A DNA stretch of 64,000 nucleotides. Origin: Asterionella formosa (Eukaryota). The notes below the pieces were generated by a model, which saw nothing but the letters and a program-made list of their open reading frames with translations, had not been told where the DNA came from and ran no database searches. The translations under genes were made by a program, and so were the position numbers. This document shows, in pieces, positions 4,569 through 52,060 of the stretch. Location of the stretch: contig NKIB01009122.1 in assembly GCA_002256025.1 (NCBI GenBank), forward strand, positions 1-64,000. Direction: 5' to 3'. The number at the start of each line of letters is the position of its first letter. Within the stretch, counting starts at the first letter, position 1.

Positions 4569-4763
4569 TATGATCCTGAAACTAGATGCTTTACTGTCCC
4601 ACTGTAGTAGCAACAGTCCTGAACATATGGTGTTCTGTTGCTCGCTTACTACTCCGTTTACCCTCTTTCAAATTTACGATCATACGATCCTGAAACTATG
4701 ATGATTTACTGTCCCGCTGCAGTAGCAACAGTCATGAACATATGGTGTTCTGTTGCTTACTAC
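4569..4763 (+). repeat. Tandem duplication of an ~82-bp unit (4569-4652 and 4683-4763)
   Basis: gatcctgaaacta...tttactgtccc...agtagcaacagtc.tgaacatatggtgttctgttgct occurs twice. Confidence 0.85.
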
Positions 4764-6205
4764 CTGGTACTCTGACTACCTGGTACCCCCAGTATATCAC
4801 TTCCTACCTGCTACTGGCACTCTGTATATATATGATAAAATGTTATTGTCATTTGATGTACCGGTACACATGAAGAACTCCCGCCCAAGAAAGGGGCTTA
4901 AACAATTTGCTACCAAAATCCTTGCATATAAATATTGATACAAATGGGTTATGACTTAGTACACCAATTGAATGGTCTAAATAATTAGTTCCAACGGTCG
5001 TAGAAAATATTGATGTAAACAAATATCAAAAAAACAGTACTGGTACATGAAGTCGTGGAAAACAATGGAGATATAGTGCATTGAATATTTTCGAATTATC
5101 TATATGCAAATATGATCATCTCAATAATACCAGACGTTCCATATTGTGAGTGCCTTTGAATTTTATAAATGTACGACACTTGATATATATATACATTTAC
5201 AAATTTTATAACTATTTACATGGCAAATTTATTTGAAATCGTTCTTTCATGTTAACAAACAATACCTGGTTCATGAAAAGAAATATCGGAGTAAAGCACA
5301 TGACAAGAAAGGAAAAGTTTACGCAATAACGAAAAACACTGTGGCTTCGACACATTGCGCCTTCGAAGGATGGAGTATGTTTAAGGTAATGAAGCCATCA
5401 ATGTGTTACTTGGATGAAAATCGTTGGGACTCAGGACAACAACAAATTGTAAATTGAATGCACATATCCTTTTTTCTCAGTTGATTCAATAGCTCGTTTT
5501 GCTTGTTGGGGAGCACCGATGTGAAACAAAACAAATTTCGTAAGTGCTCTTGTCGTTGGACCTATTCACTTCTGTTGGAACATAACTGACAGACAAGCCA
5601 CATTTACCTTCTCTCAAAGTTAAGCTAACGAAAATGAATCGGTAAGTTTTATTCGGCAACATTGGAAACCTGAAACTTACTTATTCAAGAGTTTACTGAC
5701 AATTTACTATCACAGACTTATGCATCACTTGCTTTGATTTGTGGTAAGTGAAGCAAGCAAGAGGATACAATGGAATGGCGTGATGTTGTGTCAGTGTAAT
5801 ATGTCTAGCTAACAAGGCTTTCCTTCTCATTGTTACTGTAACTGCATAGGACAATAAAACCGATCAAACAACGGAATAGTCGGCAAGTTCAAAATGACAC
5901 TAATAGCAGGGAAAGAGACGCAATATTAGTAAGGCATTGCTTGGCACAAGATTCAGAATAGAGGAAGAAAAGGGCGAGACAGGAATATACATTGAGATGA
6001 GTGGAGAGGAGAGAAACATTCCTCGTGTAGCTGAGGAAACAGAAATACAATTGCTAAATTTGTTAATTAAATTACAATTTTTCCAATCCTTTTTGAACAA
6101 TGCTTGTGATTAGAATTATGATCATGTTTTAGATAAATTTACGATGAAACAATTCACATGATAGCATAGAGTTGAGCTGATTTTAGGATGCATTGTAGTA
6201 ATAAT

Positions 6206-7025
6206 TTACATCGGGCGATCATGTAGACGTAAAACCATTTCCATGTCGTCCTTTGTAGGAGCTCGCAAATATTCTGTTCCATACCTGCTGATTATTGAGT
6301 TACAAAACACTTTTAGGTTGTGGAGTGTAGTCAATTCAGCCATTCTTGTGAGGTCATCCATCTGATCCGCCAAAGTTCCGTAAGCCAACATTCGAAGCGA
6401 TGAGGTTAACTTTTGATGCGGCGAAAAAAGACCAGATCCAAGGCATCTTTCTTCTGTTCAAATTATGGATTCGCCTCAACCAAATCTTCAAGAATCTTTT
6501 CAAATAAGGAGCAATGCATCCGGAAGCACCTCCTGAAATGTGTAGGTGGCAGAGTAGATTGGATTCTTGCCGGAATAGTTGTCCTTCAACAGCTTATCGT
6601 ACTCTGCGCGAAAGCGATTCACGTTACTAGCCTTGCCAGCCTGGGAACCTCCTCCCCTATTTTGTATTTTCTTTGCATCATTCTCACCTTTTTGTTGACG
6701 ATGCATCTTGCGGAAATGGTAGCTAGAGGCGATCATCATCAGATGAGTCGCTATCATTGCTCATTGTTTCATTTTGTGTTTATATTGCTATGTAGTAGTA
6801 CATACCGCTGTATCAATGATACACATATAAAGACAATATAGCTCTATTTCTATTTGCTAAAATTTCGGCACAAGATTTGACTATTTTTAGGATTTGGTCG
6901 ATGCGGTGGGAAAAGATATGAAGAATTCGACTATTGATAAAAAATTTCTTGATGACCAAGTGACATGTATTGATGTTTTCAACTGCAATTGGCTTTGGTA
7001 TTTGGTTGATGCACTGGAGATGCTC
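6206..7025 (-). mobile_element. PIF/Harbinger transposon remnant: 5' TIR plus frameshifted, 3'-truncated transposase
   Basis: Minus-strand peptides KLTSSLRMLAYGTLADQMDDLTRMAELTTLHNLKVFCNSIISRYGTEYLRAPT and NYSGKNPIYS resemble Plant_tran/Harbinger transposases. The minus strand reads TTA-GAGCATCTCCA at 7028-7015, a PIF/Tourist-type terminus with a TAA/TTA target. Confidence 0.8.
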
Positions 7026-7699
7026 TAAGAAGAAAACGGCGATCGCAATTATTATTTTGAAAACACAAGTTTTATCGTAATGAAATTCAAACAGTTTCCG
7101 GGTTTCCGGTAAACCAAAAAATACCTGATTTCGCGACATCCGTGAGTGAGCACTAAAATAAAAAAAATGTAAAATGCAAACAAGCAAGCAAACAATTCAT
7201 ATTTCATTTGACTATCGGTGGTATTTCCTCTACCTGGTTCATGATGGTGAGTCCTGGGAGGAAAAAGGTACCTGATGGTAGCGAGACCTAACCCTCTTTT
7301 TGGTTCAAATTGCTTGATGATTCAGTTAGACCATTTATCATATGTTGATATTTCGAATGACTGCTTCTTCCATCCAGAGGCATCGACCCGAACATTCATT
7401 AGAAGCACCTGGACTAGTGTTACATTTTGAGCAATGATAAGTAGATAATTTGTAGTAACGTTCGCTCAATTACATTCCAGGTATGCAAATTGAAGGTTGG
7501 TGACAGCTTTATTTAGTCGGAAATACACAATAGATCGGGCTAGTGGGAACAAGGATTGCATACTATGTCACATTAATCATTTAGACTCATGTGGCACTAC
7601 ATGATGACAGCACTATTTTGACAGAAGGGATAGATTTCACTTCCAGGTTTTTGATGGTGCCAGGAACCAATTCCTTCAATTGGCCCTGTTCCTTTTGTT

Positions 7700-9806: not shown

Positions 9807-9855
9807 GGTACCTGGTACCTGGTACCAGTTACCTGGTGAGTACCTAGTACCGGTA
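9807..9855. promoter_or_regulatory. TACCWGGTAC array upstream of the 7700-9163 gene
   Basis: ggtacctggtacctggtaccagttacctggtgagtacctagtaccggta; the regulatory role is inferred from position only. Confidence 0.5.
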
Positions 9856-10007
9856 TCTATTTCATAGCTCGGCAAAACCTGTACATTGGCCAGCAATAAT
9901 CACAACAAACATGCACATTCCCACGTATTACAGAATCAATGTTATGTAGCAAATGTATGCTTCAGGTAAAACACAACCGAGAGTGGAGACTGGCTGACTG
10001 TAAGAAT

Positions 10008-16478: not shown

Positions 16479-17587
16479 TTCTTTAATGCCACACCCCACC
16501 CAATGCAAGTGAGGAGGCATCTCAGCTTATTATTTCTGGATTGAACCCTACAGTTGAAAGTGACTCTGTCACTGCATACTAGAACATTTCTAACCATGAT
16601 ATTGATTGTGATCTCGCTTTTCTTAAAAATCCAGCCATCCAGTTCATCCTTCTCATCCTCCTTTACAAAATGCTAGCTAACAGCACAATACACCAACACC
16701 GCCAAAGTTTACAATCACACGGATGCTCCTCCACAACCACCACACCAAGCAAGTCACAATTCCTCCAGCACCATCTCCTCCAAAGCCAATTTAATAAGCA
16801 GTTGCTGCATCTCTAGGCCTGCTTGAACATTTCATTTATTTTGCTTGGACAACATGAAGAAAGTGTAAGTTCACAATTGTTAATGAACATACATTGACAT
16901 TTTTTCCAAGACTTTCAGCTAACTCATTTTCTTTTTCATTATTTATTCTGCTACTTGCTCGTCATTGTCACTGCTTAGCTTTTGTTTTCCGATTCATGAT
17001 TTGGTTGCTTCAAAACATCATGTCGAATTTTTCAATGCTTGTTAAAACCTCGCTTGTGTCATCTTTTTTCATGCTGTGTCATCTTTTTTCATGCATACCT
17101 GTATACCGTTATTCAGTGGGAGATGCATGTTTGATGTGGTATCGATTTCTAAACTTAGTTCCCATGAAAATTCTCTTCCTGGTGTTGCTGGATGGTCCCT
17201 CCTTAAACCTACAATTGGATTTCCGAAAAGTCCACTGTGCCCATATATTGCCCCTCAATAAATTACTTAGATACCAGAAATTGCTTAGAAACCACAGTTC
17301 TCATCGAAAAGCACGACGATGGCATGTATGGTGGCGATTCCAGTACCTGGTACTGACTCGTGCTCCTAATACTGGTACCGTAGTTTGCTGACGTACAGTC
17401 TATAGGAGCGAGCATAAGACGAAGAGAGCACACCGGTAATTAATAGCTATAGTGGTGCGTAGGAGCGAACACATCCTCACCAGCCAACATTGATTAAGAG
17501 AACAACAATAATAACCGAGTGATGTAAGTGATATAATTTCTTGTGGCAACAACTTCAATATTTAACTGTCAATTGTTGAAAGGTGCC

Positions 17588-20289
17588 ATGGAATACATTG
17601 CAATAGCAGCCCTTCTGCTAACTTACTACACTGGATCAACCGATGGCTTTGCATATGCCCCAAACTTCATTACGAAGATAATCAAGGATGAAACTAACAT
17701 TGAGCCCGTCGGATTGCTCGTGCCTTCAGAAAATGGGGCCACTCAACTTTCGAAAGAAACGGTACAAGCTACTCAAAAGGTGACCACCCGTTTTCCTCCA
17801 GAACCCAACGGATACCTCCATTTGGGTCATGCGAAGGCAGTCAGCTTCAATTTTGCTGTAGCTCGCATGTTTGGTGGAGACTGCCACATGCGACTGGACG
17901 ACACCAATCCCTCAAAGGAAGACGAAGAATACGTTACAAGCATTCTGGAAGATGTGCAGTGGATTCAAAGTGGGCTGGGAGAGCCAGGAAAGAAACCTTG
18001 GAGTGGCAGTGTCAGAAAGACGAGTGATTACTTTGAACAAATCTATGAGTGTGCCGTTTCCTTAATCAAGTCAGGTGACGCCTTTGTTGATTCCCTGAGT
18101 GCCGATGAAATGAGAGAATATCGTGGTACTTTGACAGAACCTGGAAAAGACAGTCCGTATCGAACAAGGAGTGTCGAAAAAAACCTTGAACTATTTGAAG
18201 GGGTGAGTGCTTCTTCCTCTGATAGCTGATTCGTGCCGTGTCACTGAATGATAGCCAATCTCACTTTGAATTTCCCCCAAATCACAGATGCGCAAGGGGA
18301 AATTCGCTGAAGGAACTCACATCTTGCGTGCCAAGATTGATATGGCATCGCCTAATATTAACATGAGAGATCCTACCCTGTTTCGAATCAAGCACGAGTC
18401 CCATCAGGCGACAGGGGATACATGGTGTATTTATCCCATGTATGACTTCTCACATCCCATTTCCGATTCTTTAGAAGGAATCTCGTATTCTCTTTGCACT
18501 CTTGAGTTTGAAGATCACCGGCCGTTTTATGACTGGACAGTGGACAAATTAAAAGACAATGGAATGCTAGAGTGCAAACCACAGCAAATCGAGTTTAGTC
18601 GGTTGAACGTTAAGTGAGTGCTGTTGAATGACGACTATTGACTGTTTCGAAGCTATTTGGTAGAATGCAATTGATCACTCACTCACCTCCTTTTCATGAA
18701 GAAATACAGTTTTATCCAAAAGAAAGCTCATTCAACTAGTTCATCAAAACCATGTCAGCGGTTGGGATGATCCTCGAATGCCAACGCTGTCGGGCATACG
18801 TCGACGAGGTGTGCCCCCTGCTGCGTTGCGCCTCTTTTGTGAACGCGTCGGTATCAGTAAGGCTGATTCCAACATTGACTATGTTGTATTGGAGGACTGC
18901 ATTCGTGAAGAAATGGACAAAGTCTGCGTTAGGGCTTTTTGCGTACTGGATCCATTGAAGATTACATTGACAAATTGGGGTGGATCAGCGATTGAAGACC
19001 TTGAGATAGCACGTCATCCGAAAATGGAGGAGCTTGGAAACCGTGTCGTGCCGTTTGGAAAGCACCTCTTTATTGAACGTTCAGATTTCTTTGATTTGGA
19101 AGGACCAGAAGGATCTAAAACTGAGGGTTCGGTTCCCAAAGACTTCAAGCGATTGTTGTTGGGTGGCATGGTTAGACTTAAGTTTGCATATGTTGTTAGT
19201 TGCGATGAAATTGTCAGAGACCCCGAAACTCAGGAACCGGTTGAGTTGAAGTGCACTGTGTACCCTGAGACTCGAAATGGTGTGACACCAGACGGCATGC
19301 AAAAAGTCAAAGGGATTATCCATTGGGTGGAAGCATCAACTGGAATTAAATGTCAAGTTAATCAATATGATAGACTCTTTTTGACGGAAGAACCAGGTAA
19401 AGATTCAGATGACTTCATCAATGATATCAACCCTGACTCGTTTAAGGCCATAACGAACGTCATCGTTGAGCCAAGTGTTGCAATAGATTCATTGGCTACA
19501 ATGGCGGAAATTCGCCGTGCTGCAGAGGGCGAAAAGATATATGCTTCATCTCTTGCCTATCAATTTGAACGATCAGGATACTTCGCCCTTGACCAGGACT
19601 CCACAGGAATTGATAACTTGATCTTCAATCGAGTTGTGACTCTCCGCGATGCATGGGGAACATCGCAACAACATGTTAGAAGTGAAGAACAACGAAACCG
19701 AGGAGGAGGCCACGTTCAAAAAGATCCATCAGACAATGAAACACTTGAAGACATTAGAAGAGTCGCACTCAAGGCTGCGACGATATTAAATGCTGGTCCT
19801 CACCCTGAAGCGGACAATTTGCTGATCTGTAAGGTAGATTGTGGAGATGTGACTACAACAGGAGAAGCTGCTGAGCCTCGAACAGTTGTTGCAGGGCTCG
19901 CTGGCAAGATTCCCTCAAGTGAATTAATTGGCAAGAAGGTTGTTGTCATTACTAATCTAAAGCCCGCCAAAATGCGAGGTGTTGATTCCATGGCAATGCT
20001 CTTGGCCGCTTCAGGTGGCAAAGAGGGTGACGAAAAAGTGGAATTGCTTTCTCTCCCCGACTCTGTTCCTAATGGGGAGTTAGTTTCTTTTGAGGGGATA
20101 GGGACTGCTAAACCTGACGACATGCTGAAATCCAAAGGAGCTCTCAGAGTTTGGGATAGAGTCAAGGCCAGTTTAAAGTCAAATGCTATTGGAGAAGCAA
20201 CTTATCTGCAAGGTGACACTTCACATCGTATGATGACATCTGGAGGCCCAGTGATGACTGCCACGCTTACCAATGCCCCTATCCAATAA
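17588..20289 (+). CDS. glnS: Glutaminyl-tRNA synthetase (bacterial-type, probably organelle-targeted) with C-terminal tRNA-binding OB-fold. Exons 17588-18202, 18288-18613, 18702-20289
   Basis: [14 protein letters not shown] (HIGH), [22 protein letters not shown], spliced [42 protein letters not shown] introns 18203-18287 and 18614-18701 restore the frame. C-terminal HPEADNL...RTVVAGL...[20 protein letters not shown] is Trbp111/EMAPII-like. Confidence 0.95.
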
Positions 20290-22423: not shown

Positions 22424-23895
22424 TTGCAAGAAGAGACGTAAACGGTCGCAACCGTGGGAGAAGAGGAGAAGGGGATGAAGAAACCTAACGATGCAGGCCT
22501 TGAAGGGGACAACACTTGAGGTCGTCCTTTATATCTAGTAGAGTATGCTCTTTGTTTTTATGAACTGTGACTTTTTATATGATCAACACGACATCAACAA
22601 AAATCCGTAACTCTATGGACTCAATGATCAGAACATAAAACAACTTACAAAGTAGAAGTACTGGTACATCTGTACTCCACAAGAACCTTACATATTATTA
22701 TGTATGGTAGGTTATTAAAAAGGACTCGTTTTGCCTCACTATCTGTTCAACCGGGATCGATTTGTGCCATGGAAAACCGCTTCTCAGTTCTGAATTTATA
22801 ACCAGACATGAACATATTCATAGACCTAAGAGCGACAGATACCAGACAGTATCGGCGATCTCGAATGACCCATTCCCGGACAATGATAGCACTTCGACAG
22901 TAATTTGACAGGAAAACAACTTAAAATCATTGGCTTCGCTAACTTGAAGGTCGTTCTTGGGTTTTTTCAATCATGGTTTGTTGGCTTGTATGCATTCCTG
23001 TTGGGTGTCAGAAAAAGCAGTCTTTAAGAGACGGAGGTCTATATAGTACCTGTACTTGGAAAGGGTATGTTCTACGTGGAGTCCATACCCGGTATTTCAA
23101 AATAAATGATTGTGGGACTGTATATTGAATATTGCAGGCAAGAACATTGCCCCATTCTGAGTCTGCATTCGACTGGTCTACCGTCGGATTACTCACATAT
23201 ACTGCATACTGTTCTCCGATGAATTGAGTACTGGTAGTAACTGATGATACCCCGGACACCATCGGTACAGTAGCAGGTACAGCGCCAAGTTCAACAAGAT
23301 TCTTCGAATGACCTAACCCTTGGTTTTGGTTTTACACGACTTTCGATATGATGCGGGTCTATCAAACAAAATCGTTGTTTCCTTGTTGTTCCTTGACACG
23401 TCGCTAACAGCCAATAGAAATCATTCCCTTTAGTAGTCGATATTTCACGACATGCAGGTTTTGTCAGACCTGCATAATTGGGAGTGAATTGCTACGACGT
23501 ACCACATACATACACACGCAACCTTTAGTGCTTCAAACGTTTGTAGAAGAAAAGGGCAATGCTAGACAGTCAATGTTAATATTCCTGCATTTGAACCCCT
23601 AGGCAAAAATTAAAATATTGCTTAGGGTTGCCGAAATTCCCTGGAACAAAGAATTTTTATGAGTTAATTTTGAATGACATGATTCCATTTGAAATATTTG
23701 AATCACTGGAAATTTGTGCGTACATACATAGATTCCTTTTCAAATTCATTAAATATATACATAAACATTCTCCATTGCTCAATGTTTATATACCCTATCA
23801 TACAATCAACATATATGTGTCAGATGAGCTGGCAGCATGGCAAATATTGTTGATGACTACTGGTACTAAGAAACAAAGAAAAGCAACAATCAACC

Positions 23896-24353
23896 ATGAG
23901 CGAAATTACACATCAAAATGGTGACAATGGTAATGACGAATTTAACTACAGTCATGATAGTTGTCCTACCTGCCAAGACCGGTTGATTGTAGAGTCATAT
24001 GTGGAGGGATGTGAGGATCGCATCTTTTGCAAATGTTGCGATTTTTGCTGCCCTGAATGTCAGTGCCAATGGGATGAAGTCGAAGAGTTGGTGGAGAAGT
24101 TTCTGGAAGGTGAATCCATTCTTACCAGGTTGAAGGATGAAGACATTATGGCATCAAGAGCCCGCAATCTTCTGTACAAGTTTCTAATCATGTTTTCAGT
24201 GGTCCATTGGGAAAAGGTGTTCGGATGCAACTTCCTGACTGTTGTTTGAAGGGGGTTCGATCTCTTTTGAAGAACAAGGACCCAAACAAAGTGTACACTG
24301 GTTTTAAACCAACTTCCAAACATTCTAAATGTTCTAAATCTATTAGTGATTAG
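23896..24353 (+). pseudogene. KolX / P2X7 C-terminal (ballast)-like Cys-rich ORF with one frameshift near 24200
   Basis: CPTC...CKCCDFCCPECQC...RARNLLYKF, then from 24201 in a shifted frame GPLGKGVRMQLPDCCLKGVRSLL...VYTGFK, matching the G.LG.G.R..LP.C....R...Y.GF signature. Confidence 0.75.
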
Positions 24354-24611
24354 TGTTTTTACGATTTTCATTTATTTCATTAGTAAATCAAGAACTTCAA
24401 TCCACCTACGTATGATGTTTCAAAACCTTCTAGAAATGAGGTGGCATGAATGACAAATATATTTTTATTTTTACACAATCTAACGAATCAACCAGCCATA
24501 AAAAACAGCAACACCAACTATCATAAGAAAAAATCATGCCACGTTCCAGTGGTAGCTGTCTCATTTCCGAGATTGGTGTTGGTGGTCAAGGAGGACAAAA
24601 TATAGCGTCCG

Positions 24612-29320: not shown

Positions 29321-30632
29321 CTTTTGTCAGGTTCAGTTCAAGTGTGCGTATTTCGTCGTCTTCTTATTTATGTTGCTTGTCTCAATACAGTAGTTACCTA
29401 AGGTGTGATCACAGATATTAGGGAGGTATGGGAAACTCCGTACTTTCTCGGTATGTAGAAAATTCCTCATCTGTGCATATCATGCACAGACCTTGCTGTT
29501 TATTTTCCAAATACCAAGCAAAATTCTAGTTGCGCATTCTTCTGCAAACCTTGCATACTTCTTGTATATTACGTGTGAATATCATGTTGTCATAGACAAT
29601 TTGAGCTCTACCAAGGCATTAAACATCCAGGGACAATATGAACATTGCTTCCAATGCATGGCAAGAAATCGTGTACCTGATAGTATCAGAATGAGAGACT
29701 TCGAACAAAACGACCGCAAAAGTACGCAAAAAACCGGAATTTTGCAAAAGACTGCAAAATAACTAGAAAACCCGGATATACGACGGTTATTTTGCGGTAT
29801 TTTGCGAACATCGCATTCTTTGGTGTTTTTTCGGAAAACGTTATAGAGGTTGATTTTAGATGAAACACAGTTTTTGTATGGGACATTCCATACTTGTTCG
29901 GAGTATCCATCAACTCCCATTTGATCAACTCGCTCAGTTTGCAAACAAACAAGAAAAAATAACGAGATGAAGAAAAACAATCGTTGCTGTTCACAATTCA
30001 ATTCAATTCGAATGGCAAGAGAAACGATTTGGGTTCAAACCTGATCAGTGAAGGAAAAGGACAAGAGAGATCAAGGAAGGCATTAAACGATTGAGGAGAT
30101 GAGAGAAAGTTTGACTGATAACTGACCTGACAAAATCTAAAGGAGATTGGAAGAGGGTTTTGTTAAAAGAGTGATTAATGTACCAGTAGAGAATGAATAT
30201 TTAGATAGTAAACAAGAAAGAAAGTGATTCGAGGAGGTCATCCAAACAATCAGACAAACAGACAAATACTGATATGTCATATGTAGTTTACCGGTACATG
30301 GTGATTTACAACACAGACATGTGCACAGAGGTTGATACCAATGTGATATGGGCAATACTTCTTTCTGCCTACCGGTAGTTACATACCAGTATGTAAAACG
30401 GAAAACCGGTTGATGTTCTTAAGTGATCCAGATATTGAGAAACCATTCGTACCAAATACGACGATCCACTGACGAACAACGAGGAACACAGCTTTTCTGA
30501 CTCAGCTGTACCAACGTGTCCAACGTGCTCACAATTTCAATCGCAACCACGCAAGGAAAAACCAGCGACGCGCATATAAGCTTTGTCATCCATTATATGC
30601 AATCATATAAACGCTAATAAACAAAAGCAACA

Positions 30633-33098: not shown

Positions 33099-33529
33099 AT
33101 TCTATGGATCGTCCACAGTAGCTTTGCGGTAAGAGTTAGCAATGTGTACCGGTAATTGATAGGAATCCTAGTATCTAGGACCATACCAGCAGGCTTGTAC
33201 TGGCAACAAATTTTCTCACGAATGAATGGATGATGGCAAGCAAAATGATCACCGGTACCGATATACCGCACTTAGAACAAACCCGGGGACATCCGCTGAT
33301 AACCTGACAATTTATGGAACATACAGCTATCGGTACTGGTAAGCGGGCGCGTCAACGAAGAGCGAAAGCACGGTACCTGGTACCTGGTAGTCAAAAATTT
33401 CAATTCCCACCAGTCTTGAGCATGTGATGTCTTCACTGCGCGTATCGGTATCACTTTTCGTTAAATATTTTCTGATCCATCACATCACCTGTTGTCACCC
33501 CGTCCAAACGCATTGTCATTGTTCAGATC

Positions 33530-34682: not shown

Positions 34683-35003
34683 CTATGTGCTGATTTCATC
34701 ATCTACCTCAATATCTTTCATCATGATTGGAGGAACGACACATACAACATCCAAATGGCACTTCATGCCATATTCTTCACAGTCCATATGCTCTTCGTCC
34801 TTGTCCACTTCACCGTCGCAACGCTCGTAGCAATCCAATGTGCCTGCCTTCCCTGTTGAACGCATACAATCAGGGACCTTCTGGCAAAAGTGTTGGACTT
34901 CAGCAATACTCGCATCTTCAAAGTAGCAAACACCCATCGGCACAGGTATTTGAGCCTGTGTGGTAGCGATAACGACGACAACGATAATGAGAGAGCGGAG
35001 CAT
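34683..35003 (-). CDS. Small secreted cysteine-rich protein (106 aa, 8 Cys, acidic tail)
   Basis: Signal-peptide-like MLRSLIIVVVVIATTQA, an even number of Cys, intact ORF, taccggtac tract just upstream. Confidence 0.7.
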   Translation of the reverse strand: MLRSLIIVVVVIATTQAQIPVPMGVCYFEDASIAEVQHFCQKVPDCMRSTGKAGTLDCYERCDGEVDKDEEHMDCEEYGMKCHLDVVCVVPPIMMKDIEVDDEIST

Positions 35004-36811
35004 TCTTCGGAATGTTTCGAGTCATCAATTAAGTACCGGTACGGTATTGATGTGACTGAAACGCTGAATCATCCCCTTGCATTTTGGAAACAATATTTAG
35101 TAGCAGGTAGCAGGGAAAAACTCCTCTGACCCACTGAGTTCTCCTATTCGTTTGATTAGTTCGACTAAACCTATTCCATGCTGGGTGAGAATCAAACATG
35201 CAGCAACTGTTAATCAAAGGTGTCAGCAGGTTGTGGATCTGTTGTTATTTTCATTGAAGGTTGAGGTGCTGACACTGAGATACAAACCCTTTTATGTGAA
35301 CATAATTTGCTGGTGATGGGTCACAGCAGTACTTGAAACCCTTCTCCTTTTCCAAATCGCTTGGTATCCATTATGTATGGCAACAAGCAACTTTATCTTC
35401 AAGTTTGTAAGCCATGGCACCTCAAATGTTGCCATCTTCATTTTCTATTGGATAAGTCTTCGAGTGGCTGATATTCTCCTCTCTTTCTTTCTACTGATTG
35501 ATTATAATTGTCTCTACATGGAACCCTTTGTTGTTTTTTAGTTGTTGCTATTGAGTGTTATTTATACTCTCTAGCTACAGAGTGAATTTTTGTTGTAGTT
35601 CACTAACTGTACCAGCCTGTGGGCCTCATCACTGCTTTTGTTTTCTGATATCTTCCGCAGACATGTGTATCAATACCGAAAATGGAATTCTTTTCTGTAG
35701 TTTGGTCAGATACGCCTTTGTTACCAGCAGACGAATCTCCACTCTGATCAATGCCGACTCTTTTCTTGAGCTTGACACCTGCGACTTTGTCCTTGACACT
35801 GCCGACTTTTTTTTCGCCTTGTCGTCCTTCTCTGTAGCTTGGGCAAACATGCACGCCGTTGCTTCGCAAATAATAACTTTCTTACTTTGCTGGTTCGGTT
35901 GAGCAGAATGGGTCCTGATAAACTATTAAAGGAAAGCGATCAGGGGAGTACACCTACCCAGAGAACATCACAACTGTTACAATACAGTCCTTGAAAGTGC
36001 TGGATAAAACAGGATAATTTGTAAATCATATCCTATATTATGACTGATGTTTATCTAATTGCAACCAATGATATTCCCTTCACATTTGTGGTCTGACCAG
36101 CTGAATGGTGACATGGTGCAAATTCTGTGGTCAGCTGAATGGTCTATAGGTTGTCTGTAATAATGGATCTATGATAACTTCTTGTGTAATAGCTGTTTTT
36201 CCTTCATCAAAAAATTTAGTAGTACTAGTAGATGTGTATTCAGGAATGTGGAGACTACATTTTATCGGTTATCTATCTTCGCTCAACTTCAGTGCCCTAA
36301 CTATAACTATTATTTCGGCAGAAGCAGTTTTGCTCTTTGTCACCTAGCTAACTACCAGTAGGTGACTGCCTCCTGATACCAGGGGATCCAACAAACTCTA
36401 GCACATTAGAGTACCAACCGGCACATATGTATTCTCAAATGCACAGCACAGAATCAGGAGTGCCACTTAAATGGTTAACTTTAATAGGCAAAGCACCGAA
36501 GGTTTTCTACACACGAAATTAGAATGAAAAATTACTAGATTCGTTGATGCTATCATCCTGTGGGTATCCAAGTACAAAGCAACACATAATTTTGTTTAAA
36601 GCTTATGGCGAGGATAAATGCATCTAAAGCACAATTCTGTCCTTCGATCTGGACTGGACCAGCTTGGTGGGCTGTTTACTACCGCACGCGTTGGTATTTT
36701 ATTTATTTGATGTTACCTTCCACAATCGACACGCGCAAGGAAACCAAATGATTTGGTGAAGGTCCTTGCAAGTTGAATCTACTTAGACATGTTGAACTTT
36801 GGCCTACTCCT

Positions 36812-37366: not shown

Positions 37367-37497
37367 TGTACCGGTATGTTACCGGTACTGGTACCTGGTA
37401 CAGTACCATGTACCTGCTACCTTGCATACGTACCTGGCAGTACCGTATACGGGTACCACCAAGTACCAGGGTAAGTACCTGGTACTCCCCAGGTACA
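37367..37497. promoter_or_regulatory. Long TACC(W)GGTAC array upstream of the LYR gene
   Basis: gtaccggtatgttaccggtactggtacctggtacagtaccatgtacctg...taccagggtaagtacctggtactccccaggtac. Confidence 0.55.
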
Positions 37498-37546
37498 GTG
37501 CCAGGAATGATGGGAGTGTGAGGAGAGGCAAGCAACAAGAGAGGTT

Positions 37547-37915
37547 TGATTGATTGCAAACGAGATAATTATTGAAGAATGAGCAAAACGCATGTTTACT
37601 ATGTGTGTTCCAAGTGTCATCCTGGTGGCGTCATCTCTGATGATGTGCCCTTTTTCTTTTTTATTGTACCTGTATCCATCCATTGTCTGTAGTACTATGT
37701 ATGTTGGCATCTATATTCTACAATGCACTGCTGTGATCCAGGAGGCCTGGGGCATCTAGATCAGCATTCATAATTTGGTCTCTAAACTTCTGGAAGGTGG
37801 CACCCTGTAGTGTTTTATCAAAGAAATCAGCAATCATGCTCTCAGTTGGGCAGTATCTCATGGTCACCTCATTTGTTGCAAAACAATCAGTCACAAAGAA
37901 GTACAATGCATGGAC
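37547..37915 (-). mobile_element. Ty1/Copia (CoDi-like) 3' remnant: RNase H end plus probable short 3' LTR (~37547-37725)
   Basis: YFFVTD...VTMRYCPTESMIADFFDKTLQGATFQKFRDQIMN is the copia RNase H C-terminus. It is followed by gatcacagcagtg, a PPT/LTR-junction-like sequence. Confidence 0.8.
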
Positions 37916-38344
37916 TGAACGTTGCAAGACGAATGAAATTCTCGGTGTTTTTGAAGATTGAGATGATGTGAGCAAGGTATGTCGTAGTATCTTAAGGGGG
38001 AGGGGGGGCAAGTTGTGATGGCTTTCATTCCCGTCACCTATTGCAGAAACACCATAATCTGACGACGGAAACATTTCAGTTCTCTACATATCTTTTATTT
38101 CTTCGTCTGTGTATCTGTCTCGAGTAACGCGAACGCAGCAAGTTGAAGAATACTGTATTGTGATAAAGAAGGAATGTGTCAGCCCCTGTCAACAATTGAT
38201 CCACAATGCGAACTCTGAAGTCAGAATTCTCATACATCGAAGCCGAACGCAAAATACCAAACCACGACGATAGGGCAAATACAGAGAGCTCACAAATCAA
38301 TCTTTTTTTATTTCTCATTAACAGACACCTAAGCAGCAAGGACG

Positions 38345-38799
38345 ATGGTGGAGCTTACCATTCATTCCAAAGCAGTCAATCTAGCCCGTCGTTACACTGT
38401 CCAGAACGAGAACGATCTCTTGCGTAAGTTGGCGTTCTACTTTCAGTAGACTTTAGGAAGAAGTTATTCATGCTCTTGTACATTACTGATTTATTATTAT
38501 TTTCTTAAATCATCTCACACGCATTAACAGAGGAGGACTATGCCGGTAAGTGAGTTTGTGTCATTAATAGGCCTAATTTGTTCAGGATGACTAACATTCT
38601 CAAATGTCTATATCCAGACGATGTGAGTGATTCTGCGAAGCAGAAAAAGGTTTACGACCATGCCTTTTGTAACGAACTGGCTTCCCACATGGATAATGTT
38701 AAGAATCTTCCTCCCCAATGCAAACAGTATGACGATATCGTGAAGGACCTGCAGAAACGTGAACGCGATAACGTGGAACCAACTCAGTTCTTGAGTTAA
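38345..38799 (+). CDS. Small hypothetical protein (91 aa), three exons 38345-38423, 38531-38545 (15-nt microexon), 38618-38799
   Basis: Introns 38424-38530 (GTAAGT..AACAG) and 38546-38617 (GTAAGT..CTAAC..CCAG) join in frame to give MVELTIHSKAVNLARRYTVQNENDLLQEDYADDVSDSAKQKKVYDHAFCNELASH...QFLS. An in-frame TAA lies upstream of the ATG. Confidence 0.7.
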
Positions 38800-39458: not shown

Positions 39459-40521
39459 TCATGCTTTGGGCATGACAATTCGACTAGGTTGCTGTAGAGA
39501 ATCTTCCAAGTCATCCTCTGAAAGGAGACCAGCCTTCTTGGCAGCATATCCAATAATGACTCCTCTTTTTTTGGCAGACTGCACGTAAGACTTGAAATAG
39601 CATCGGATGCGGTCTCTAACAGTGACGAAGGAAAATGCCTCCTCATCAAACACGTATCCATGTTCGACAGCCAGTTCAAGCAAACGCTCTGTTAGGCTGT
39701 TGTTGTATTGCTTTTGTTGGACCGTATAATTGAGAGCGGAATGGCGAAGATATTCTTCGCGGTTGGCAATGAGAAATGCTTCCAACTGAAAAAAGATTGA
39801 GAAAAAAGAAAAAAGTTAGAAAATCCAGACGAGCACTTAACTGACACGATCACAACAGCCTTCGGAATTTGCTTACCTCTGGAAAGTTCTTCCAAGAGAA
39901 CTTCTTCCGAAGGATAGTTTTGAGTGAGCTGCTTGGAGAAGCCGACTTGGAATTTAATTGAATCCTTTTGTTGGTCCTGGGACTCTCTGCCTTGGTTGTT
40001 CGCTGCTTACGCAATAGCGCCGCCTTGCGTAATGGGAACCTGCGTGACACAGGCGAATCGCTTGGTGCTACGACGTCTTCGGAGGCCGTCTTCTTCTCTC
40101 CTCGATAGGTAGCGAGGTCTTCAGGAATATCAATGGAGACGGAGCGGATTCGATTCCAGATGCTGAAAAGATTTGCTGGCACAGGAGATTCTGTGCAACA
40201 AGCCGACAATGTAGCACTTGGTAGACAGGTCCGCTCCGACTCAAAATCTGGCAACTTTGGGAAGTTCTCAAGGTCATCTTCCCAGTTCACCCCATCCTTA
40301 TCAATCTCCATGTTCACAATAGCAGCAACAGAAAGAAGGAGCGCAGCTCCGCGTTCCTCTTCTAGTTCTGTACTGATAGGAGTATCGGCAGTTTGCATCA
40401 AACCTGGATTTTCTTCAGTCGTTGTTGGAGAAATCTGATGAACAAAACCTTTTGAGAGGCAGCTGCTACCTGGGCTCATCAACCCAGCTTCATCAGGACT
40501 GATTGTGGAAAGCTGAACCAT
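39459..40521 (-). CDS. Hypothetical protein with conserved C-terminal KKFSWKN.PELE...RDRIRCYFKS domain. Exons 40521-39877, 39785-39459
   Basis: Intron 39786-39876 (GTAAGC..TTCAG) joins LRKKFSWKNFPE to LEAFLIANREEY; paralog at 44317. Confidence 0.88.
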
Positions 40522-41293
40522 GGTAACGGATAAATCTTGCGTGGTCAAAGAGCAAATCGACTTAATTTTGGTTGAGGTTTTCGATCGTTGGCGGATGCTA
40601 GATGAAAGAACAAATGTGATGCACACACACAGAACCAAGAAGAATCATTTCTCATCGGAGGGTCTGTAGAATCCCACGGGGACTTCAGTCGAGGAAATAT
40701 TGATGTGATGATGTCAACTCTCACCCCACCACTCATCAGTAGTGTTTTTGGCACTTCAACTTGTTCAATGTTCAGTTAAACTTATACTTAAAGTGTACGG
40801 GTGATGGGTATCGAACGTGTAGAAGGTATAGCCTGTGAGAGGGAGGTTCAAATATACGGGGAGTCTACGTAATAAAGAATTCTCGTCGCTTTGCTTCACT
40901 CCCATGTATGGATCTGGGATAGCGGATGAAATAATTAGGGTTATTTGGAGCATACTTGGTTTATTGATACAGTGGCAGGATGTGGTACTGGCTTCGTGGT
41001 GTCAACAGGCAGCTGTTGCGATCTCTATTTTGCGAAAACAATATCAACTAACAAGACCCACGTGTTCTTGTGTACGCAGTTATTTGGACGATGGATTAGA
41101 AAAGCAGTGATATGACACCACTATGGTTGGTCGCTTAATTAATTGGTCACCCCGTAGCTCGAAGGTTTCGCAACACTCCATTAGTTATAGGGGCTGTACA
41201 TATTGTTTGCCCCAGCCGCATGCCTCAATCTCCTACGTATGGAGTTCCGATGATTATCCCGTTCCATTATTATAACTACTAACATTATACGGC

Positions 41294-41463
41294 ACCTGGT
41301 ACCAGTACCCGGTAGTCAAGCAACCGGGAATACCGGTGTACAAGGTACCTGTTACCAGGTACCGTACTGTAGAAACAGGAATGACGCGATAGGAATGACA
41401 TATATACCGCGGTAGGCAACGTGTTACACTATCAGGTACCTGGTACCAGGTACTAGTACCGGA
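41294..41463. promoter_or_regulatory. TACCWGGTAC array in the divergent intergenic region
   Basis: cacctggtaccagtacccggtag...ggtacctgttaccaggtaccg...caggtacctggtaccaggtactagtaccgg. Confidence 0.5.
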
Positions 41464-41914: not shown

Positions 41915-42799
41915 GTGATTATTAGTAGGTAACAATTCTTTTCATAAGATTTTTTGTCATATGAAAATCTGGTGAAACAGCTGTGTAGGAAACTGTGGTG
42001 GACACAGTAATGATTAGAAAATGCCTTATGCTACCAGCCAGGTAGTAGTATGGTCTATCTGATCAAATTTTCATCAGTATTATGCATACTACTACCAGTG
42101 TACTTAGGCGTATTGGAATCGACCCTACCGGTACATCAGGGATCAGAATGGTGATTTTTTTGGCCTATAAAACATTTAATTAAAGTTCAATTGCCTCCGA
42201 ATTGACTTGACATTTTAATCCGGGATTCGAAAAGGATGGCCATGACTGCAGAGCATATTCACAAAACAAGCGCTCGTATAAAGATACTGCGACTTCTCGC
42301 TTCAAATCTGATGAAGGAAAAAGCCGGAAAATTCAATAAATAGCTTCGATTCAGCAGATTTCACCAGTAAATTCTGCTGATTCGGATTTCATCAGATATG
42401 GCATAACGGATCTATTATGTCTTCCAAAAATTGGAGGGATTATGTCATTGTTCCCTGGCTGTCATATTTATTCCTTGTCATGGTTGGACGAAGGAGTACT
42501 GGTACGCAGGTGCTCCGTACTGGTGGTACCATGGTACCTTGGTACTACGTACCTGGTATTCCAGGAAGGCCCGATCGTGCATGTTTCATGCGCACTTTTT
42601 CAGTTTCGACTCACTCCCAATGACTCGTCTCATGCCTGCCAGACGAGATAGGCTGACTTTCCATTCCAAACTCTCGTAAGTAAATTTGTATTATGTTCTG
42701 ATCATCGAAATCGTGTTGACCTACCACTACTACTGGTAATGGTATTCAGCAAGAACTGCAAGACGGTTTACTAATGGAATTCACCACTCAGCAGTAAGA

Positions 42800-42914
42800 A
42801 CTTCTAGTCGTAGTCAGTAAATTCTGTTCTTAGTCAGCAACTTCTATTCGTAGTCAGCCACTTCTAATCATTTTCAGCCACTTCTAATCGTTATCAGCAA
42901 GTTCTAGTCGTTAT
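42800..42914 (+). repeat. Minisatellite, ~20-bp unit (tcagcaacttctagtcgtag), 5-6 degenerate copies
   Basis: acttctagtcgtagtcagtaaattctgttcttagtcagcaacttctattcgtagtcagccacttctaatcattttcagccacttctaatcgttatcagcaagttctagtcgtta. Confidence 0.8.
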
Positions 42915-44316
42915 ATGCAGTCACCTACTGGATCAGTAATCATAAACGAAAGAGTTATTTTGAAAATGTCTATGTGTCTATGGACAATTAATTATAATGG
43001 TTATATTTAGAGAATCAAACAAAATTTGGTTCGACCTACAGATTGCCATAGCGTAGAGTGTTGCATACTGTGAAAGTGTTAAATCTTGTCCTAACTTCGT
43101 TGTTTGGAATTGTGCATGGTCTAAAGTACATGAAGAAATGGGCCGTTGGCGACTTCAGTTTTCGTTGTCAATATTAGTGTTATTACAGTATTTTTTACGT
43201 TGTATTATCTATGTCGTTTTAGATATATTCACCCAATAGCAAAAGTATCATTTCAATTTTTTTGGAAAAATTCGCCATTTTCGTCATGGTCAAGGCGGAG
43301 ACGTGGCATGATGCAGGATTCTCCAGTCACTCACAAGAACTAGACTGTATTTATATATACATATAGAAACAAATCGCAACATTGCCGGAAAAGGAGTACT
43401 GGTACATCATACTGTGTGCCGTACCCGATATGCTGTCTTCTAATCGATGTACCGGTACCCGTTGTCTTATGTGATGATGTCATATGCTTCTCCTGATCCC
43501 GGATTCATATCATGCAAAAAGGAAAGATGCTACCGGTACCTGGTACCCTGGTAGTGGTGCCGGCGATTCGACGAAATTATTTTCAACCGGAGGGTGTATA
43601 TACCAGCTTTCACTGGTAACAGGTACTCCGAATACCCTGTTAGACTAGCATGGTCGTAAATATTTACCAGGGAGTTGTGGTTAACGACGGTTTTTGCTAT
43701 AAGGAAAACAAAGCTAAATTTCTCATTTGCTGCAGCTTGCAGGTAGACAGACTTCTTGTTGATATTGACTTGCGTCTTGTTGACGAACAGCAGAGATCGG
43801 CATGCTTTGAACTCCTGCTCATGATTGTTAGAATTATATATAAGGGGGGGGGGGCTGAATCAAGTTTACCGTACCTTTTTCACCTACCTGGTAATAATAT
43901 TCTTGACGGTATGAATGTTTATGATATGGATGATTATTATTTAGGAAATACTGTGCATAAAAAGAAAAAGGGCTATCATACAAACAATGATTATAATTAT
44001 CCAACTATATATTATACGTATATACGTTCACAATTTTAACTTTTCCTGAAGTTTAGTTTTAAGGCGACATGACATTCAATAGGTACCCAGTTTCTTCGTG
44101 TAAATGATGAGAACGAAGTCAAAACTAGTTGCTATCGTCCTCCTACTGAATTGGAACAAAGGTAAAGTAGCCGTTTTCACTGACGAGCCCCTCCTTACCC
44201 TAATCTGCTTGTATACTCCCTTGTGCGCTCCCTTTCCTCGCCCAGTAGCCGCGAACCTTGTAGAAATAAAACGATTGGGATTTGAGACGAGAGGTCGACG
44301 ATCGATAAGTAACGCC

Positions 44317-45186
44317 ATGTTGGAGTTATTGCATAACCAGCCTCAAAATCCAAGGATCGGCGATGCAAATTTGGTGTCAGCTGCCTTCATCCTGATACAA
44401 GTGGCAACAATAGCTAGCAATGAAATCAACGAGACGACTAGGAACAAACGAACACTCGTCGGTTACACCTTGACTGAAAATATAGTGTCCTGCGACGGAA
44501 ATTCTAATCATCCGTTATCTGATGAATTGATTGATGTTGAACGGCATGAGGAATCCTTAGGAATTCGCGGTCGATCCATATCATTGTCATCTACAGAAAC
44601 GAAGAATCTTCCCTTGCGATCTCCACCTAGCTCTCCTTGTATTGGCACTTCCAATGTTCCTCCAAGCGAAATTCTAGTTCAAGCTTTCCCGCCAATCATG
44701 GAATTGATTCCATCATCGCCACCAATTACTTCCAGAAAAAAAGCGAAGGTCGGCAAAGGCAAGATTATGTGTGTAGGACAAACAACACCTCATCGCCTAA
44801 AAGGTGTTCTCCACAAAAAGTTTTCCTGGAAAAACTTTCACGAGGTTCGTGATTCTTCTTGGTCTGAGCTCTATTCCTTACTAATATTGGCATAATGAGC
44901 TAACACATTATTGCTTCTCTCGTTTCAGCTCGAAGACTTTCTGGTCCTGCATAGGGACGAATACTTTCAACATTCTTGCAATCACAACTACTCAGCAACG
45001 CAGAAAGAGTACAACAACGCGTTAACGAACGAATTATTAGACCTTGCCAGCGGTTTAGGTTACACATTTGAAGAGTTTACTTTTGCTGAAATTCGTGATC
45101 GAATTCGGTGCTACTATAAATCCTACCTTCAAGCACTGAAGAAGCAACGCAAAAAGTTCGAACCAAGTCAAAAGGTGGATAAGTAA
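44317..45186 (+). CDS. Paralog of the 39459-40521 gene. Exons 44317-44844, 44929-45186
   Basis: Intron 44845-44928 (GTTCGT..CTAAC..TTCAG) joins LHKKFSWKNFHE to LEDFLVLHRDEY...RDRIRCYYKSYLQ. The start could be an upstream ATG near 44104. Confidence 0.85.
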
Positions 45187-47300: not shown

Positions 47301-47844
47301 GGCTATTTCAATGACTTTGGAAAGGAGAACCTGGCAACACCGGGTACTATTATTAGATGAGATACGGTAATCCTACGTATGGATGGTCAGCTGCACGACT
47401 GCTACATGGCTCCAAATAAACATACCACCGCAATTCAAAGAATCCAACCTGCAGCAAGCCATACAAATACCGTTATATCACCCGTAACGTAAAAGCCTGT
47501 TTCCTATATACACTCCCCCTCATTATCATGAGCGTACATACCGGCAGCTGGTAGGTACTCCTGGTACCTGGTCCCAGGTACCTACCCATCCTAGTATAGT
47601 ACTCGAGGTGAAGGTGCCAGTATCAGAAGATAACTATCATATTAGTTAATCATTTTATCGAACTCATAACTAGGTTGACATCAAATAATTCAATTGGTGA
47701 TAGTTGAGTTCTCTCATTATCGAGTTTTGTAATACTTGATATAACCCTACTAAGTCTATATACACCTGGTGTATCATGCATGCATTGTGTGGGATCTCTC
47801 ACTCTCCCAGCACACTAAGCAAGGGAAAACCTTTCACATACTAT

Positions 47845-49359: not shown

Positions 49360-50710
49360 ATGTCACCTATAAAACTTCCAATTGGTACCTCCAAATTGGT
49401 TTTGCCAAATCGGTATTTCCAAATGGGTGTCACCAAATCGGCAGCGCCAAATTGGTAGAAAAATTGTTCTATATATGCCTTTTAAAATAGTATACATTAT
49501 TCATCAAGTAAAGCTAATAGTGAAGTAAGTTGTGAGTGTACACTGAAAACTACAAACCAACAACAACTAAACCAACAGGTCAGCCCAATCAAAACAATCC
49601 CAAATCAAAAGCAACGTGCTGATTGTTGATTCCAAAAGCTGACAATCCCTCAATCTAACGATTCTACACACCTTAGCTGACATATTGACGAACAGGTCAG
49701 CCCATGAATTTTTGACAATTAGTCCGACAGCAGAGCCTCTCCATAATATCCCATCAAAACCAACAGCTGAGCCAGACAATACATACATATAAATATGCAA
49801 CAATACACCACTGCTTGTCCTTTAAACAACTAGAAGATTCGCATTGTGTGAAAAGTCATGAATTCTACTGACTGACACTATATGAATTTTCGGAAATGTT
49901 TTGCAAAAATTTTATTCTTTCCAGTCCCCCTTCCCCACTCCCGACATGGCTGATGTCAGAACCGAAATGATTGGCTGTTGATGCCAACAGCGATTTACAT
50001 ACGAGGAAAAGGCAGGAATATACCCCCAGAAATTGTCGAACCCCTAAATTTTGCGCCGCTCCATTATTCTTTAAATAGTTTTTTACATAGACCTTAAGCC
50101 GTTACTCGTTTTATTGTCAAAATGAACTTGAAGTCAGCAGTAAGCAGTCAGCGATTCTGCTGTGGAAGGTGGCAGCGCTTTTCCGTTTGAAACTTTATAA
50201 CGATAACAGGAAGTATAAATACATAGAAATATTTTGAGATTTTTCATCATTTCGGAATTGGTGAGCCGGTCAGACTTCCAATGAAGTAGGTTGACACCGC
50301 TACATGGAATTTTTAGTAGTATATAGAGCGCGCAAAGATTACCGGACCTTCCTGACGAAAAGACAGGTCCCGTTGTGCCACAGGGATGAATAAAACCGGT
50401 ACAAATTGTGTCCATATATTTTGGCCCGATTGCAATTATTTGATAGCTTTAATGTACTAAACAATTTACTTGACATTATTTTAAAAACTTAATTGACACC
50501 AAGTTGGATAAAATTTGGTAGCAAATGATTCTAGTTTGGTTATTTTGTGACACTTAATAAACATATATATTAAGGGTGTCCATATCTTACAATTTTTGGC
50601 GGAATTGGTTTCAAAAATCTCAAATTGGCAAAAATCTCAATTTGGATTTCTGACAGAAAAACAATCGAAATTCCAATTTGGAATCCAAATTGGTATTACC
50701 TGTGTGGATA
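49360..50710. mobile_element. Probable non-autonomous DNA element with CCAAATTGG subterminal repeat clusters at both ends
   Basis: Six ccaa(a)t(t/c/g)gg copies at 49378-49455 and further copies at ~50500-50695; exact termini and TSD not resolved. Confidence 0.45.
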
Positions 50711-51988
50711 CGTGCATCAAACTTTGCTTGTTGTATTACTTACATAAATTCAGTCGGAAGGTGGACTAATGATATAATGGTGAGTTGTTTTTCAGGTTTA
50801 CCGGACATTTACGGTTGACCCGGAATACTACATGGCACTGAATGCACTTTTTAACCCGTAGCAGTGCCAACATCATGCTACTTCGAGGTATTGGATACGA
50901 TCTCTCGTTATGACAACAAATATCAATTCAGATCGAAAAAAATTCTGTTTGGGCCTGCTAACATTTGAGAATTGGGCCTACTAAGATTTAATTTTGTCCC
51001 AAAAAAGTTTAGGCGCATGGTGTCAACTCTGGTGCATCATGATGAACTTTCATTCTATGATGTCTTCCTCCTCCTCAATTCTGTGTGATTTTGTACATTT
51101 AGGTAAATACAATGTAGATGACAAAAAGGAATCATATGGAAATTTTTTATTGGTAAGGGATAACAAATTAATGAAATATCATGGCAAAATTAGATTTTAG
51201 CATTTTTCGCACTTCCTTAAGCCTATGGCGGTGATGTACACAGTTGCATCAATTTGGTGCATGAGGATGGCGAAAAATCTTTTCTCTGTATCTTCGTCAT
51301 TCCTTGGACGATTCACACCTTCTTGGCATATGCTATATACATCAACAGGATACATTTGGAACATGTTGCTTTACTGGCGAGGAATAACAAAGGAGAATTA
51401 AGTAGTACAAGTATATATATATATACTATTCATGGATCTGTAGCTTATGTGATTGTGCTCATTAGGGCAATTGAGCCGGAGAAAATCGTATGATAGGAGT
51501 CAAAATGGTCCCGGATGAATTATAACATTTGAGGCAATTGTTTTCGCCCAAACGAGGGGGTACCAGGGGCACCGGTCAACTTGCGTTAAATGTGCAATTT
51601 AGCTTTGTTTTCCGAATAATATATAGACCGTCTTCTACCGCTACTGCCAAGAGTACTTGATTACCAGTATGTACTCCCTCTGGGCGAAAGCAATTGCGTT
51701 AGCCAATTCTTAAAAATTCTCCGGTCCTTTTGGACTCCTATGTATGATTTCTCCTGCTCAATTGCCCTACACACATACATAATGTGTTCCTTGGAGTGCC
51801 TGATGGTATCTACCTAAGCACCAGAGAAAGTTCGCTTAATTTTTTGTCATGGTAACAACCGTCTTTTACCGTAGCTACCGATACCTGATGTGTGCGTAGC
51901 ATGACGACAAACGGGCATCCTCACAAGACGGTCTGCTGTATTGTTGCTTGCAACGACCGTATTTTGCTTTGCTCCGTTTAAATAACAC

Positions 51989-52060
51989 TACCCTGGTACC
52001 AGTTACCAGGTACCTGGTACCAGGTACTGCTACTACCCAGTCATCATGTTGGTACCGGTA
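51989..52060. promoter_or_regulatory. TACCWGGTAC array upstream of myosin
   Basis: taccctggtaccagttaccaggtacctggtaccaggtac...ggtaccggta. Confidence 0.55.

Follow-up and report, generated by a model that had tools for sequence, protein, structure and literature searches.

We analyzed the arrays of short near-palindromic words, typified by TACCWGGTA, that lie along a stretch of 64,000 nucleotides from the diatom Asterionella formosa (assembly GCA_002256025.1, contig NKIB01009122.1, positions 1 to 64,000, forward strand; hereafter the window) and that we interpret as very probable excision scars of TA-targeting transposons. TACCWGGTA occurred at 18 sites in the window against 0.5 expected from an order-2 Markov model, and TACCGGTA occurred at 16 sites against about 0.45 expected. 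A first-pass annotation of the sequence had named 13 tracts of such words and eight start codons downstream of most of them; all 13 tracts were found (Table 1), and our coding model recovered all eight start codons. The location 5′ of genes held for most arrays, the exceptions being those at 4761, which has no gene near it, and 42495. The annotation had left unnamed the minus-strand open reading frame (ORF) of 106 amino acids whose immediate upstream DNA holds the weak tract at 35033. The RNA runs cited in Table 1 consist of contigs only and therefore give no start sites; the ends of their cover are a weak hint at most.

Table 1. Arrays of TA-bounded units and related elements in the window (MITE, miniature inverted-repeat transposable element).
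Feature	Positions	Strand	Context
Two TA-CCTGG-TA units within a dispersed repeat	4761..4787		Both plain TA in an 87–91% identical paralogue (contig C71)
Scar array: CCTGG, CCTGG, CCAGT and CCGG units	9807..9855		About 640 bases 5′ of the gene starting at 9163 (-)
Scar array	17340..17380		5′ of class I Glu/Gln-tRNA synthetase gene (17588+)
Loose tract of degenerate units	23040..23280		5′ of protein kinase gene (22423-)
Two TA-CCGG-TA and one TA-CCAG-TA	30289..30390		5′ of gene 30633+
Two chained CCTGG units	33372..33390		5′ of Mpv17/PMP22 gene (33530+)
TA-CCGG-TA-CGG-TA	35033..35047		30 bases 5′ of 106-aa ORF (35003-34683, -); RNA contig end at 35029
Long mixed array	37367..37497		5′ of LYR gene (37222-); first CCGG unit is plain TA in all four public runs compared
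Long mixed array	41294..41463		5′ of gene 40521 (-); RNA contig extends to 41436
Array flanked by two repeats	42495..42567		No called gene within 1.5 kb
CCGG-CCTGG-CCCTGG chain	43530..43553		5′ of gene 44317+; RNA contigs start at 44100 and 44108
Array	47548..47584		5′ of UDP-glucuronate decarboxylase gene (47300-)
Array	51989..52060		5′ of myosin gene (52277+); RNA covers 52202, not 52126
Decayed pogo-like element of the CCA-ended family	57085..58979	-	Transposase broken; homologue of the transposase of CCAG-ended element L257
Non-coding CCAC-ended MITE with terminal inverted repeats	60365..61118		470 bases 5′ of kinase gene (61589+)

We searched the genome (68.4 Mb in 15,436 contigs) for the 13-mer GGTACCWGGTACC and found 9,910 exact matches, compared with 5 for the reversed control. 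Perfect five-unit runs were rare, with 106 placements genome-wide against 0 for the control. Positions relative to genes were determined in a sample of 623,169 bases from 19 genome stretches with 161 gene models of our own coding model, which misses short genes such as that at 35003-34683. The density of TACC(W)GGTA was 3.21 per kb within 1 kb upstream of genes, 0.53 per kb downstream and 0.02 per kb in coding DNA (335, 38 and 4 sites, respectively), and the reversed control was flat (0.04, 0.04 and 0.07 per kb). Because the sampled contigs were chosen from lists of motif matches, these absolute densities may be too high, but the contrast between 5′ and 3′ sides is unaffected. An array, defined as three or more half-sites within 60 bases, was present within 1 kb upstream of 100 of the 148 genes scored and within 1 kb downstream of 23. 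Of the divergent spacers, 37 of 44 contained an array, as did 38 of 52 tandem spacers and 4 of 46 convergent ones (Fisher P 1e-13 for 5′ against 3′). Among length-matched spacers of 0.5–4 kb the difference remained, with arrays in 26 of 32 divergent and 2 of 19 convergent spacers (P 1e-6). Even divergent spacers shorter than 1.5 kb carried arrays in 15 of 19 cases. The median distance from the ATG to the nearest array was 396 bases, with the enrichment peak 200–600 bases upstream. The units showed no strand bias relative to genes in the genome sample, and the TA dinucleotide was similarly frequent on both sides (76 per kb upstream and 73 downstream). The upstream excess that the first-pass annotation had proposed was clear. 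Runs of C/G were also enriched upstream in this sample. Extrapolation gave about 30,000 CCWGG and 30,000 CCGG units in the genome, both upper estimates.

The window stretch was present in lake metagenomes, and contigs from the lake metagenome of another study bridged the arrays at 37367 and 51989 with allelic differences of 6 and 7 bases. These results indicate that the arrays are real and polymorphic, and an assembly artefact is ruled out. Fragments of a single repeat family were also rejected as the source, since only 14 of the 195 arrays in the sample lay inside repeats. The 13-mer had 0 sites in 135 kb of repeat DNA and 129 sites in 270 kb of unique non-coding DNA, where repeats are those detected within the sample only. 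No exact 20-mer match was obtained in viral contigs.

The units parse as TA-x-TA, each bounded by a duplicated TA. The most frequent non-coding forms of x were CCWGG (279), CCGG (271), CCAG/CTGG (181), CCAGGG/CCCTGG (35) and CCSGG (23). The central base was W in 279 of 302 TACC-N-GGTA sites, and the central pair was AG or CT in 35 of 50 TACC-NN-GGTA sites. Most chains consisted of a single unit (492 of 603), and single-base variants of the unit were distributed across all positions. Lone CCWGG units were flanked by C in 72% of cases (n = 89), while the value for lone CCGG units was 27% (n = 227), as for any TA.

A search of the genome sample for TA-bounded inverted repeats starting with TAC gave eight candidate elements, four of which had CCAG, CCAC, CCGT and CTCC ends. 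All four possessed near-perfect terminal repeats, and the copies of the CCAG, CCAC and CTCC types were inserted directly in chains of units. Allowing at most one mismatch, 187 CCAG ends and 111 CCGT ends were found genome-wide, against 0 for the controls. The genome also contained 93 matches to DDE_1. The CCGT-ended family shows the terminal inverted repeats, TA duplication and DDE_1 transposase of pogo-like elements, and its copies are 99.1–100% identical over 1,955 bases, which indicates recent activity. The CCAG-ended family (128 genome matches) has terminal inverted repeats and the TA duplication; it includes a 3.4-kb element, L257, itself within a chain of units, and a copy on contig C14068 with an open frame of 779 amino acids. 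The named feature clusters nearest to the ORFs of this family (0.92) carry HTH_Tnp_Tc5 (93–96% of members) and DDE_1. A DDE_3 profile search of the genome gave nothing; a Transposase_1 search also gave nothing, but the same search matched no control either. In the window, the decayed element at 57085..58979 retains a single terminal repeat at 58979 adjoining a CTGG-TA flank, and its second end was not found, while the MITE at 60365..61118 is flanked by TA-CCAG-TA-CTG-TA and TA-GTC-TA.

Several further arrangements of elements and arrays were observed. Internal scar arrays varied between copies of the CCAG MITE (L229–L254). A multi-copy element of 2.1 kb (L064:205-2265; genome copies 97–100% identical) has ends that start with CCAG and CCAC and lie within scar arrays. 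It contains a peptidase M3 fragment, with an internal array 5′ of this fragment, and is possibly a gene-capturing element. In an unassigned metagenome contig (L084:3-4020), an array lies about 850 bases 5′ of a Copia gag-pol ORF.

We compared the words with the element ends. Only 21 of the 7,408 possible TA-x-TA word pairs (x of 4–7 bases) are joins of the four element ends, and these joins accounted for six of the 15 enriched words, among them the five at the top of the ranking, which derive from CCAG and CCGT ends. CTCCGAG/CTCGGAG, a join of CTCC ends, was seen 7 times against 0.1 expected.

Empty and filled sites were examined among 302 distinct indels between paired copies, 48 of which were 6–8 bases long. 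A TA was duplicated in 21 of these 48, compared with 2.5% by chance. Seven of the 48 were exact joins, five of them non-tandem, with TA in one copy and TA-CCTGG-TA or TA-CCGG-TA in the other. The repeat at 4761 gave a similar picture, its paralogue having a plain TA in place of each of the two TA-CCTGG-TA units of the window, and the CCGG unit at 37368 was missing in four runs. One pair of repeat loci, L098 and L112, aligned poorly. Indels of TA to TA-GC-TA were also seen between paired copies. By the three features tested (duplicated TA, terminal bases and an empty TA allele), the units are, as judged from sequence, excision footprints of the Tc1/mariner-pogo type.

The targets of the CCAG family were determined from 30 distinct ends, taken from the first 30 exact-match loci of the 187. 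The outer flank followed the consensus ACCTGG|TA, with G 25, G 23, T 23, C 19, C 14 and A 14 of 30 from position -1 outward, whereas GG precedes TA in 7% of the background. Since the two ends of one copy differ and no other duplication is present, this flank is target rather than element. Six of seven CTCC-type ends followed TGG or CAGG, and the CCGT ends (n = 28) had no flank bias like that of the CCAG ends. The bases next to lone CCWGG and lone CCGG units agree with this difference between the families. Because the preferred flank is (CC)TGG, a CCWGG scar recreates the preferred target of the CCAG family on both of its sides. The ratio of upstream to downstream density was 15-fold for CCWGG and 3-fold for CCGG, and GC units had no excess, which indicates that the 5′ bias differs between families and is greatest in the self-targeting one. 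Where a called gene lay on the outer side of a CCAG end, the end faced the 5′ end of that gene in 12 of 12 cases. Two related CCA-ended elements (L229 and L250) lie end to end with one TA in common, an arrangement expected if element ends themselves serve as targets.

Taken together, the arrays very probably represent stacked excision footprints of TA-targeting cut-and-paste transposons of the pogo/Tc1-mariner superfamily and their MITEs. An element inserts at TA and duplicates it, as the intact TA-bounded elements show, and excision would leave a few terminal bases that end-joining converts into TA-x-TA. For CCAG...CTGG ends, 4-base overhangs paired over 4, 3 or 2 bases would give CCAG/CTGG, CCWGG and CCAGGG/CCCTGG, respectively, with the W of CCWGG reflecting one mismatch resolved either way; CCGG scars would come from CCG-ended elements. 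The flanks of their ends show that the CCAG and Stowaway-like CTCC families favor a TA lying between (CC)TGG and CCA(GG). A CCWGG scar or an element end supplies such a TA, so that each cycle may turn one good target into two and the array would grow. CCAG elements sit mostly in their own scar and face gene 5′ ends, which suggests that insertion and excision together regenerate the target and enlarge the arrays. The elements presumably land mainly in the open, CpG-retaining DNA 5′ of genes, where the arrays are located; scars in coding DNA would be purged, and slippage would contribute a minority of units. A slight bias of insertion toward open chromatin is described for ZB in the available text of PMC7913693.

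With a mutation rate of 5e-10, the upkeep of about 60,000 units needs 1–3 excisions per million element-generations if 100–300 elements are assumed, and with so low a rate no selection is required. The first-pass annotation had regarded fragments of one transposon family as an outcome that would overturn its proposal; the units instead appear to be scars of several families.

The same words were found in a second diatom that appears unrelated. A metagenome scan with a three-unit pattern gave at least 124 stretches. Among the 79 loci listed, many had a high GC content, few units and ORFs of prokaryotic appearance and were rejected as unrelated simple repeats; 35 were taken by contig-name series and GC content, 32 remained after removal of redundancy, and 30 were used for spectra after L064, L098 and L112 were excluded as repeats of the A. 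formosa type. One locus encodes a phosphomannomutase that is 62% identical to its A. formosa match over the main exon and whose named relatives are diatoms; the other loci were assumed to come from the same organism. Full units numbered 0 in 74 kb of coding DNA and 404 in 86 kb of non-coding DNA. An array was present in 4 of the 12 divergent spacers, in 7 of the 17 tandem ones and in none of the 15 convergent ones, a weak test because the spacers are short. Six of the eight enriched words were joins of element ends, now including CCACG and CTCGAG.

A number of observations weigh against excision as the origin of the arrays. Of the 21 TA-duplicating indels, 14 are not exact joins, and the indels could equally reflect loss of a unit between its two TAs. 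Excision itself was not observed, and no site was seen with both the element and the scar states. An extra 7-base unit at 52049 in one lake-metagenome allele is a perfect tandem duplication and fits slippage equally well. The word-join comparison is partly circular, because the word spectrum was already known when the ends were identified in the same data. Nine of the 15 enriched words do not correspond to joins, and some joins were not enriched in the genome sample (CCA, 77 against 109 expected; CCACTGG, CCAGCTGG and CTCGAG, 0). TA-GC-TA and TA-GWC-TA were enriched in the non-coding sample, and no element with matching ends was found. The ORF of the CCAG family had no Pfam match at the cut-off, the copy read being frameshifted, and 18 of the 30 CCAG ends had no scorable gene (10 with none in at least 1 kb and 8 on pieces too short). 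The proposed 4-base stagger exceeds the 0–3 bases of ZB (PMC7913693), though Osmar5 leaves 1–4 (PMC1925063), according to the available parts of both papers. In the second diatom, the 30 loci yielded no convincing element ends.

The alternative that survives best, although we regard it as improbable, is that the units are sites of an abundant general promoter factor, for example of Myb type, kept by selection as homotypic clusters that transposons then target. A general regulatory factor was our initial reading, held at that stage to be fairly likely, and it was dropped after the word, element and target tests. The strong 5′ enrichment with its peak close upstream of the ATG agrees with this explanation, as do the RNA contigs, which mostly begin downstream of arrays, and the identical words in the second diatom. 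In addition, the similar palindromes TACATGTA and TACCGGTA are Phytophthora promoter motifs in the available text of PMC3597505 and PMC3520976, and TACATGTA is bound by PsMyb37 according to that of PMC11134190. However, a promoter factor does not predict three observations: a closed TA-x-TA series that includes CCAGGG/CCCTGG but no other spacers, the CTC(C/G)GAG words, and the appearance of whole units at bare TAs within repeats. Moreover, no array lies within 1 kb upstream of 48 of the 148 genes, a full unit is absent from 32 of the 45 upstream regions that lack an array, and the single-base variants spread over all positions of the unit. The dedicated promoter signal, one of the options offered by the first-pass annotation, keeps its 5′ location but is not the best reading; the units match the ends of resident TA-targeting transposons.

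Still less probable is a promoter microsatellite expanding through replication slippage and hairpin-driven strand switching with no transposons involved. The units have a 7-base periodicity, the allele at 52049 is of the expected kind, and among the centers of neighboring units in the genome sample TT outnumbers the other pairs (TT 39 against AA 11, TA 22 and AT 10). In the second diatom, however, A and T centers are fully mixed (26, 24, 24 and 23), most chains are single units, and units arise at bare TAs. Tandem duplications accounted for only 4 of the 48 indels of 6–8 bases, and slippage as the main source is largely refuted. The promoter-targeted, self-expanding repeat suggested at first was therefore close in spirit, but its growth is not mainly by slippage.

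The least probable alternative, a barrier that stops methylation from spreading out of transposon DNA into promoters, fits the ratio of observed to expected CpG (0.86–0.91 between array and ATG against 0.50–0.69 beyond the array) and the 34–48% repeat cover on the distal side of the array, but it is weakened, on this indirect CpG evidence, because CpG depletion starts 500–1000 bases 5′ of the ATG with an array (71 genes) or without one (45 regions, falling from 0.79 to 0.49–0.64 beyond 750 bases), because 3′ gene ends adjoin CpG-poor DNA without arrays, and because short divergent spacers carry arrays.

Other features of the window were recorded alongside the arrays. The 106-aa ORF at 34683-35003 (-) is unannotated and cysteine-rich, with a hydrophobic N-terminus, and the RNA contig that covers it extends across the convergent Mpv17 gene as well. 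Very deep RNA contigs lead from gene 40521 (-) by way of a spliced tail to about 38045 and continue over a remnant at 37718-38083, which has no Pfam match and which we take to be retrotransposon-like by its resemblance. In one run, the joint at 38423-38617 carries 14 other letters. The divergent genes 39850-40644 (-) and 44104-44895 (+) have no Pfam match; the first exons of both end in KKFSWKNF, and the two are therefore likely paralogues. A single RNA contig (44100-47192) joins the convergent gene 44317+ and the UDP-glucuronate decarboxylase gene, whose 3′ ends overlap; the decarboxylase has diatoms as its named relatives. The class I Glu/Gln-tRNA synthetase gene (18700-20289, +) bears a C-terminal tRNA_bind domain, and a decayed Mutator-like transposase lies in a multi-copy repeat at 23573-27000. 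The degenerate tandem repeats at 42799-42914 (20-base) and 49380-49457 (14-base) have no relation to the arrays.

A full-text literature search, in which subscription papers were mostly missing and supplements such as the motif tables of PMC3597505 were not included, found no footprint arrays in diatoms. The new aspects here are the scale, the loop in which the scar equals the target, and the promoter location. The arrays form a countable and datable log, by family, of tens of thousands of past excisions. They are also a mutation source aimed at promoters and offer a direct test of the adoption of scars as regulatory sites, and the origin of TACATGTA and TACCGGTA in Phytophthora is reopened. 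A wider reading, which we consider doubtful, is that the self-seeding loop wrote much of the upstream DNA in at least two distantly related diatoms, serves as a landing pad that keeps several element families out of coding DNA, and came to be used by a host factor as a promoter signal, with the same origin for the oomycete TACATGTA and TACCGGTA. If this were true, domesticated excision scars would make up a class of promoter motifs shared among stramenopiles.

The Phytophthora motifs resemble the arrays as abundant TA-bounded palindromes 5′ of genes in another stramenopile group. TACATGTA is known as motif-1, M93 and AM-20, and TACCGGTA as M94; the latter is, by comparison with the motifs in the available text of PMC3597505, a word identical to that of the diatom. 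They differ in having been read as factor sites, with a Myb protein bound to TACATGTA (PMC11134190, available part); the accessible portion of PMC3520976 discusses an origin as footprints but does not adopt it, and gives taCATGta as a Tc1 footprint. TACATGTA was not enriched in the A. formosa genome sample, and TACCGG, GGTACC and TACATG are not among the motifs given in the available part of PMC11267843. Pogo-like DDE_1 transposons and their MITEs resemble the resident elements in the TA duplication, the short terminal repeats and the helix-turn-helix plus DDE_1 transposase, which is putative for the CCAG family. In contrast, the CCAG-family transposase lacks a Pfam match at the cut-off, and its target consensus copies its own end.

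The footprints of Osmar5, Stowaway, ZB and Tc1 are similar to the diatom units in that a TA duplication encloses a few terminal bases, 1–4 for Osmar5/Stowaway and 0–3 for ZB in the accessible text of PMC1925063 and PMC7913693, respectively. The CTCC ends resemble CTCCCTC, the terminal consensus of grass Mariner elements in the available part of PMC4423477. These known Tc1/mariner footprints are rare single marks, whereas the diatom scars number tens of thousands, derive from at least four end types, are chained and dominate upstream DNA. A likeness at a single site is the Triticeae beta-amylase intron, for which the available text of PMC1925063 describes repeated Stowaway insertion and loss, with elements inside an earlier footprint and several footprints per site. 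That case is one locus over the history of a tribe, whereas the diatom arrays are genome-wide and the measured target consensus is the scar itself.

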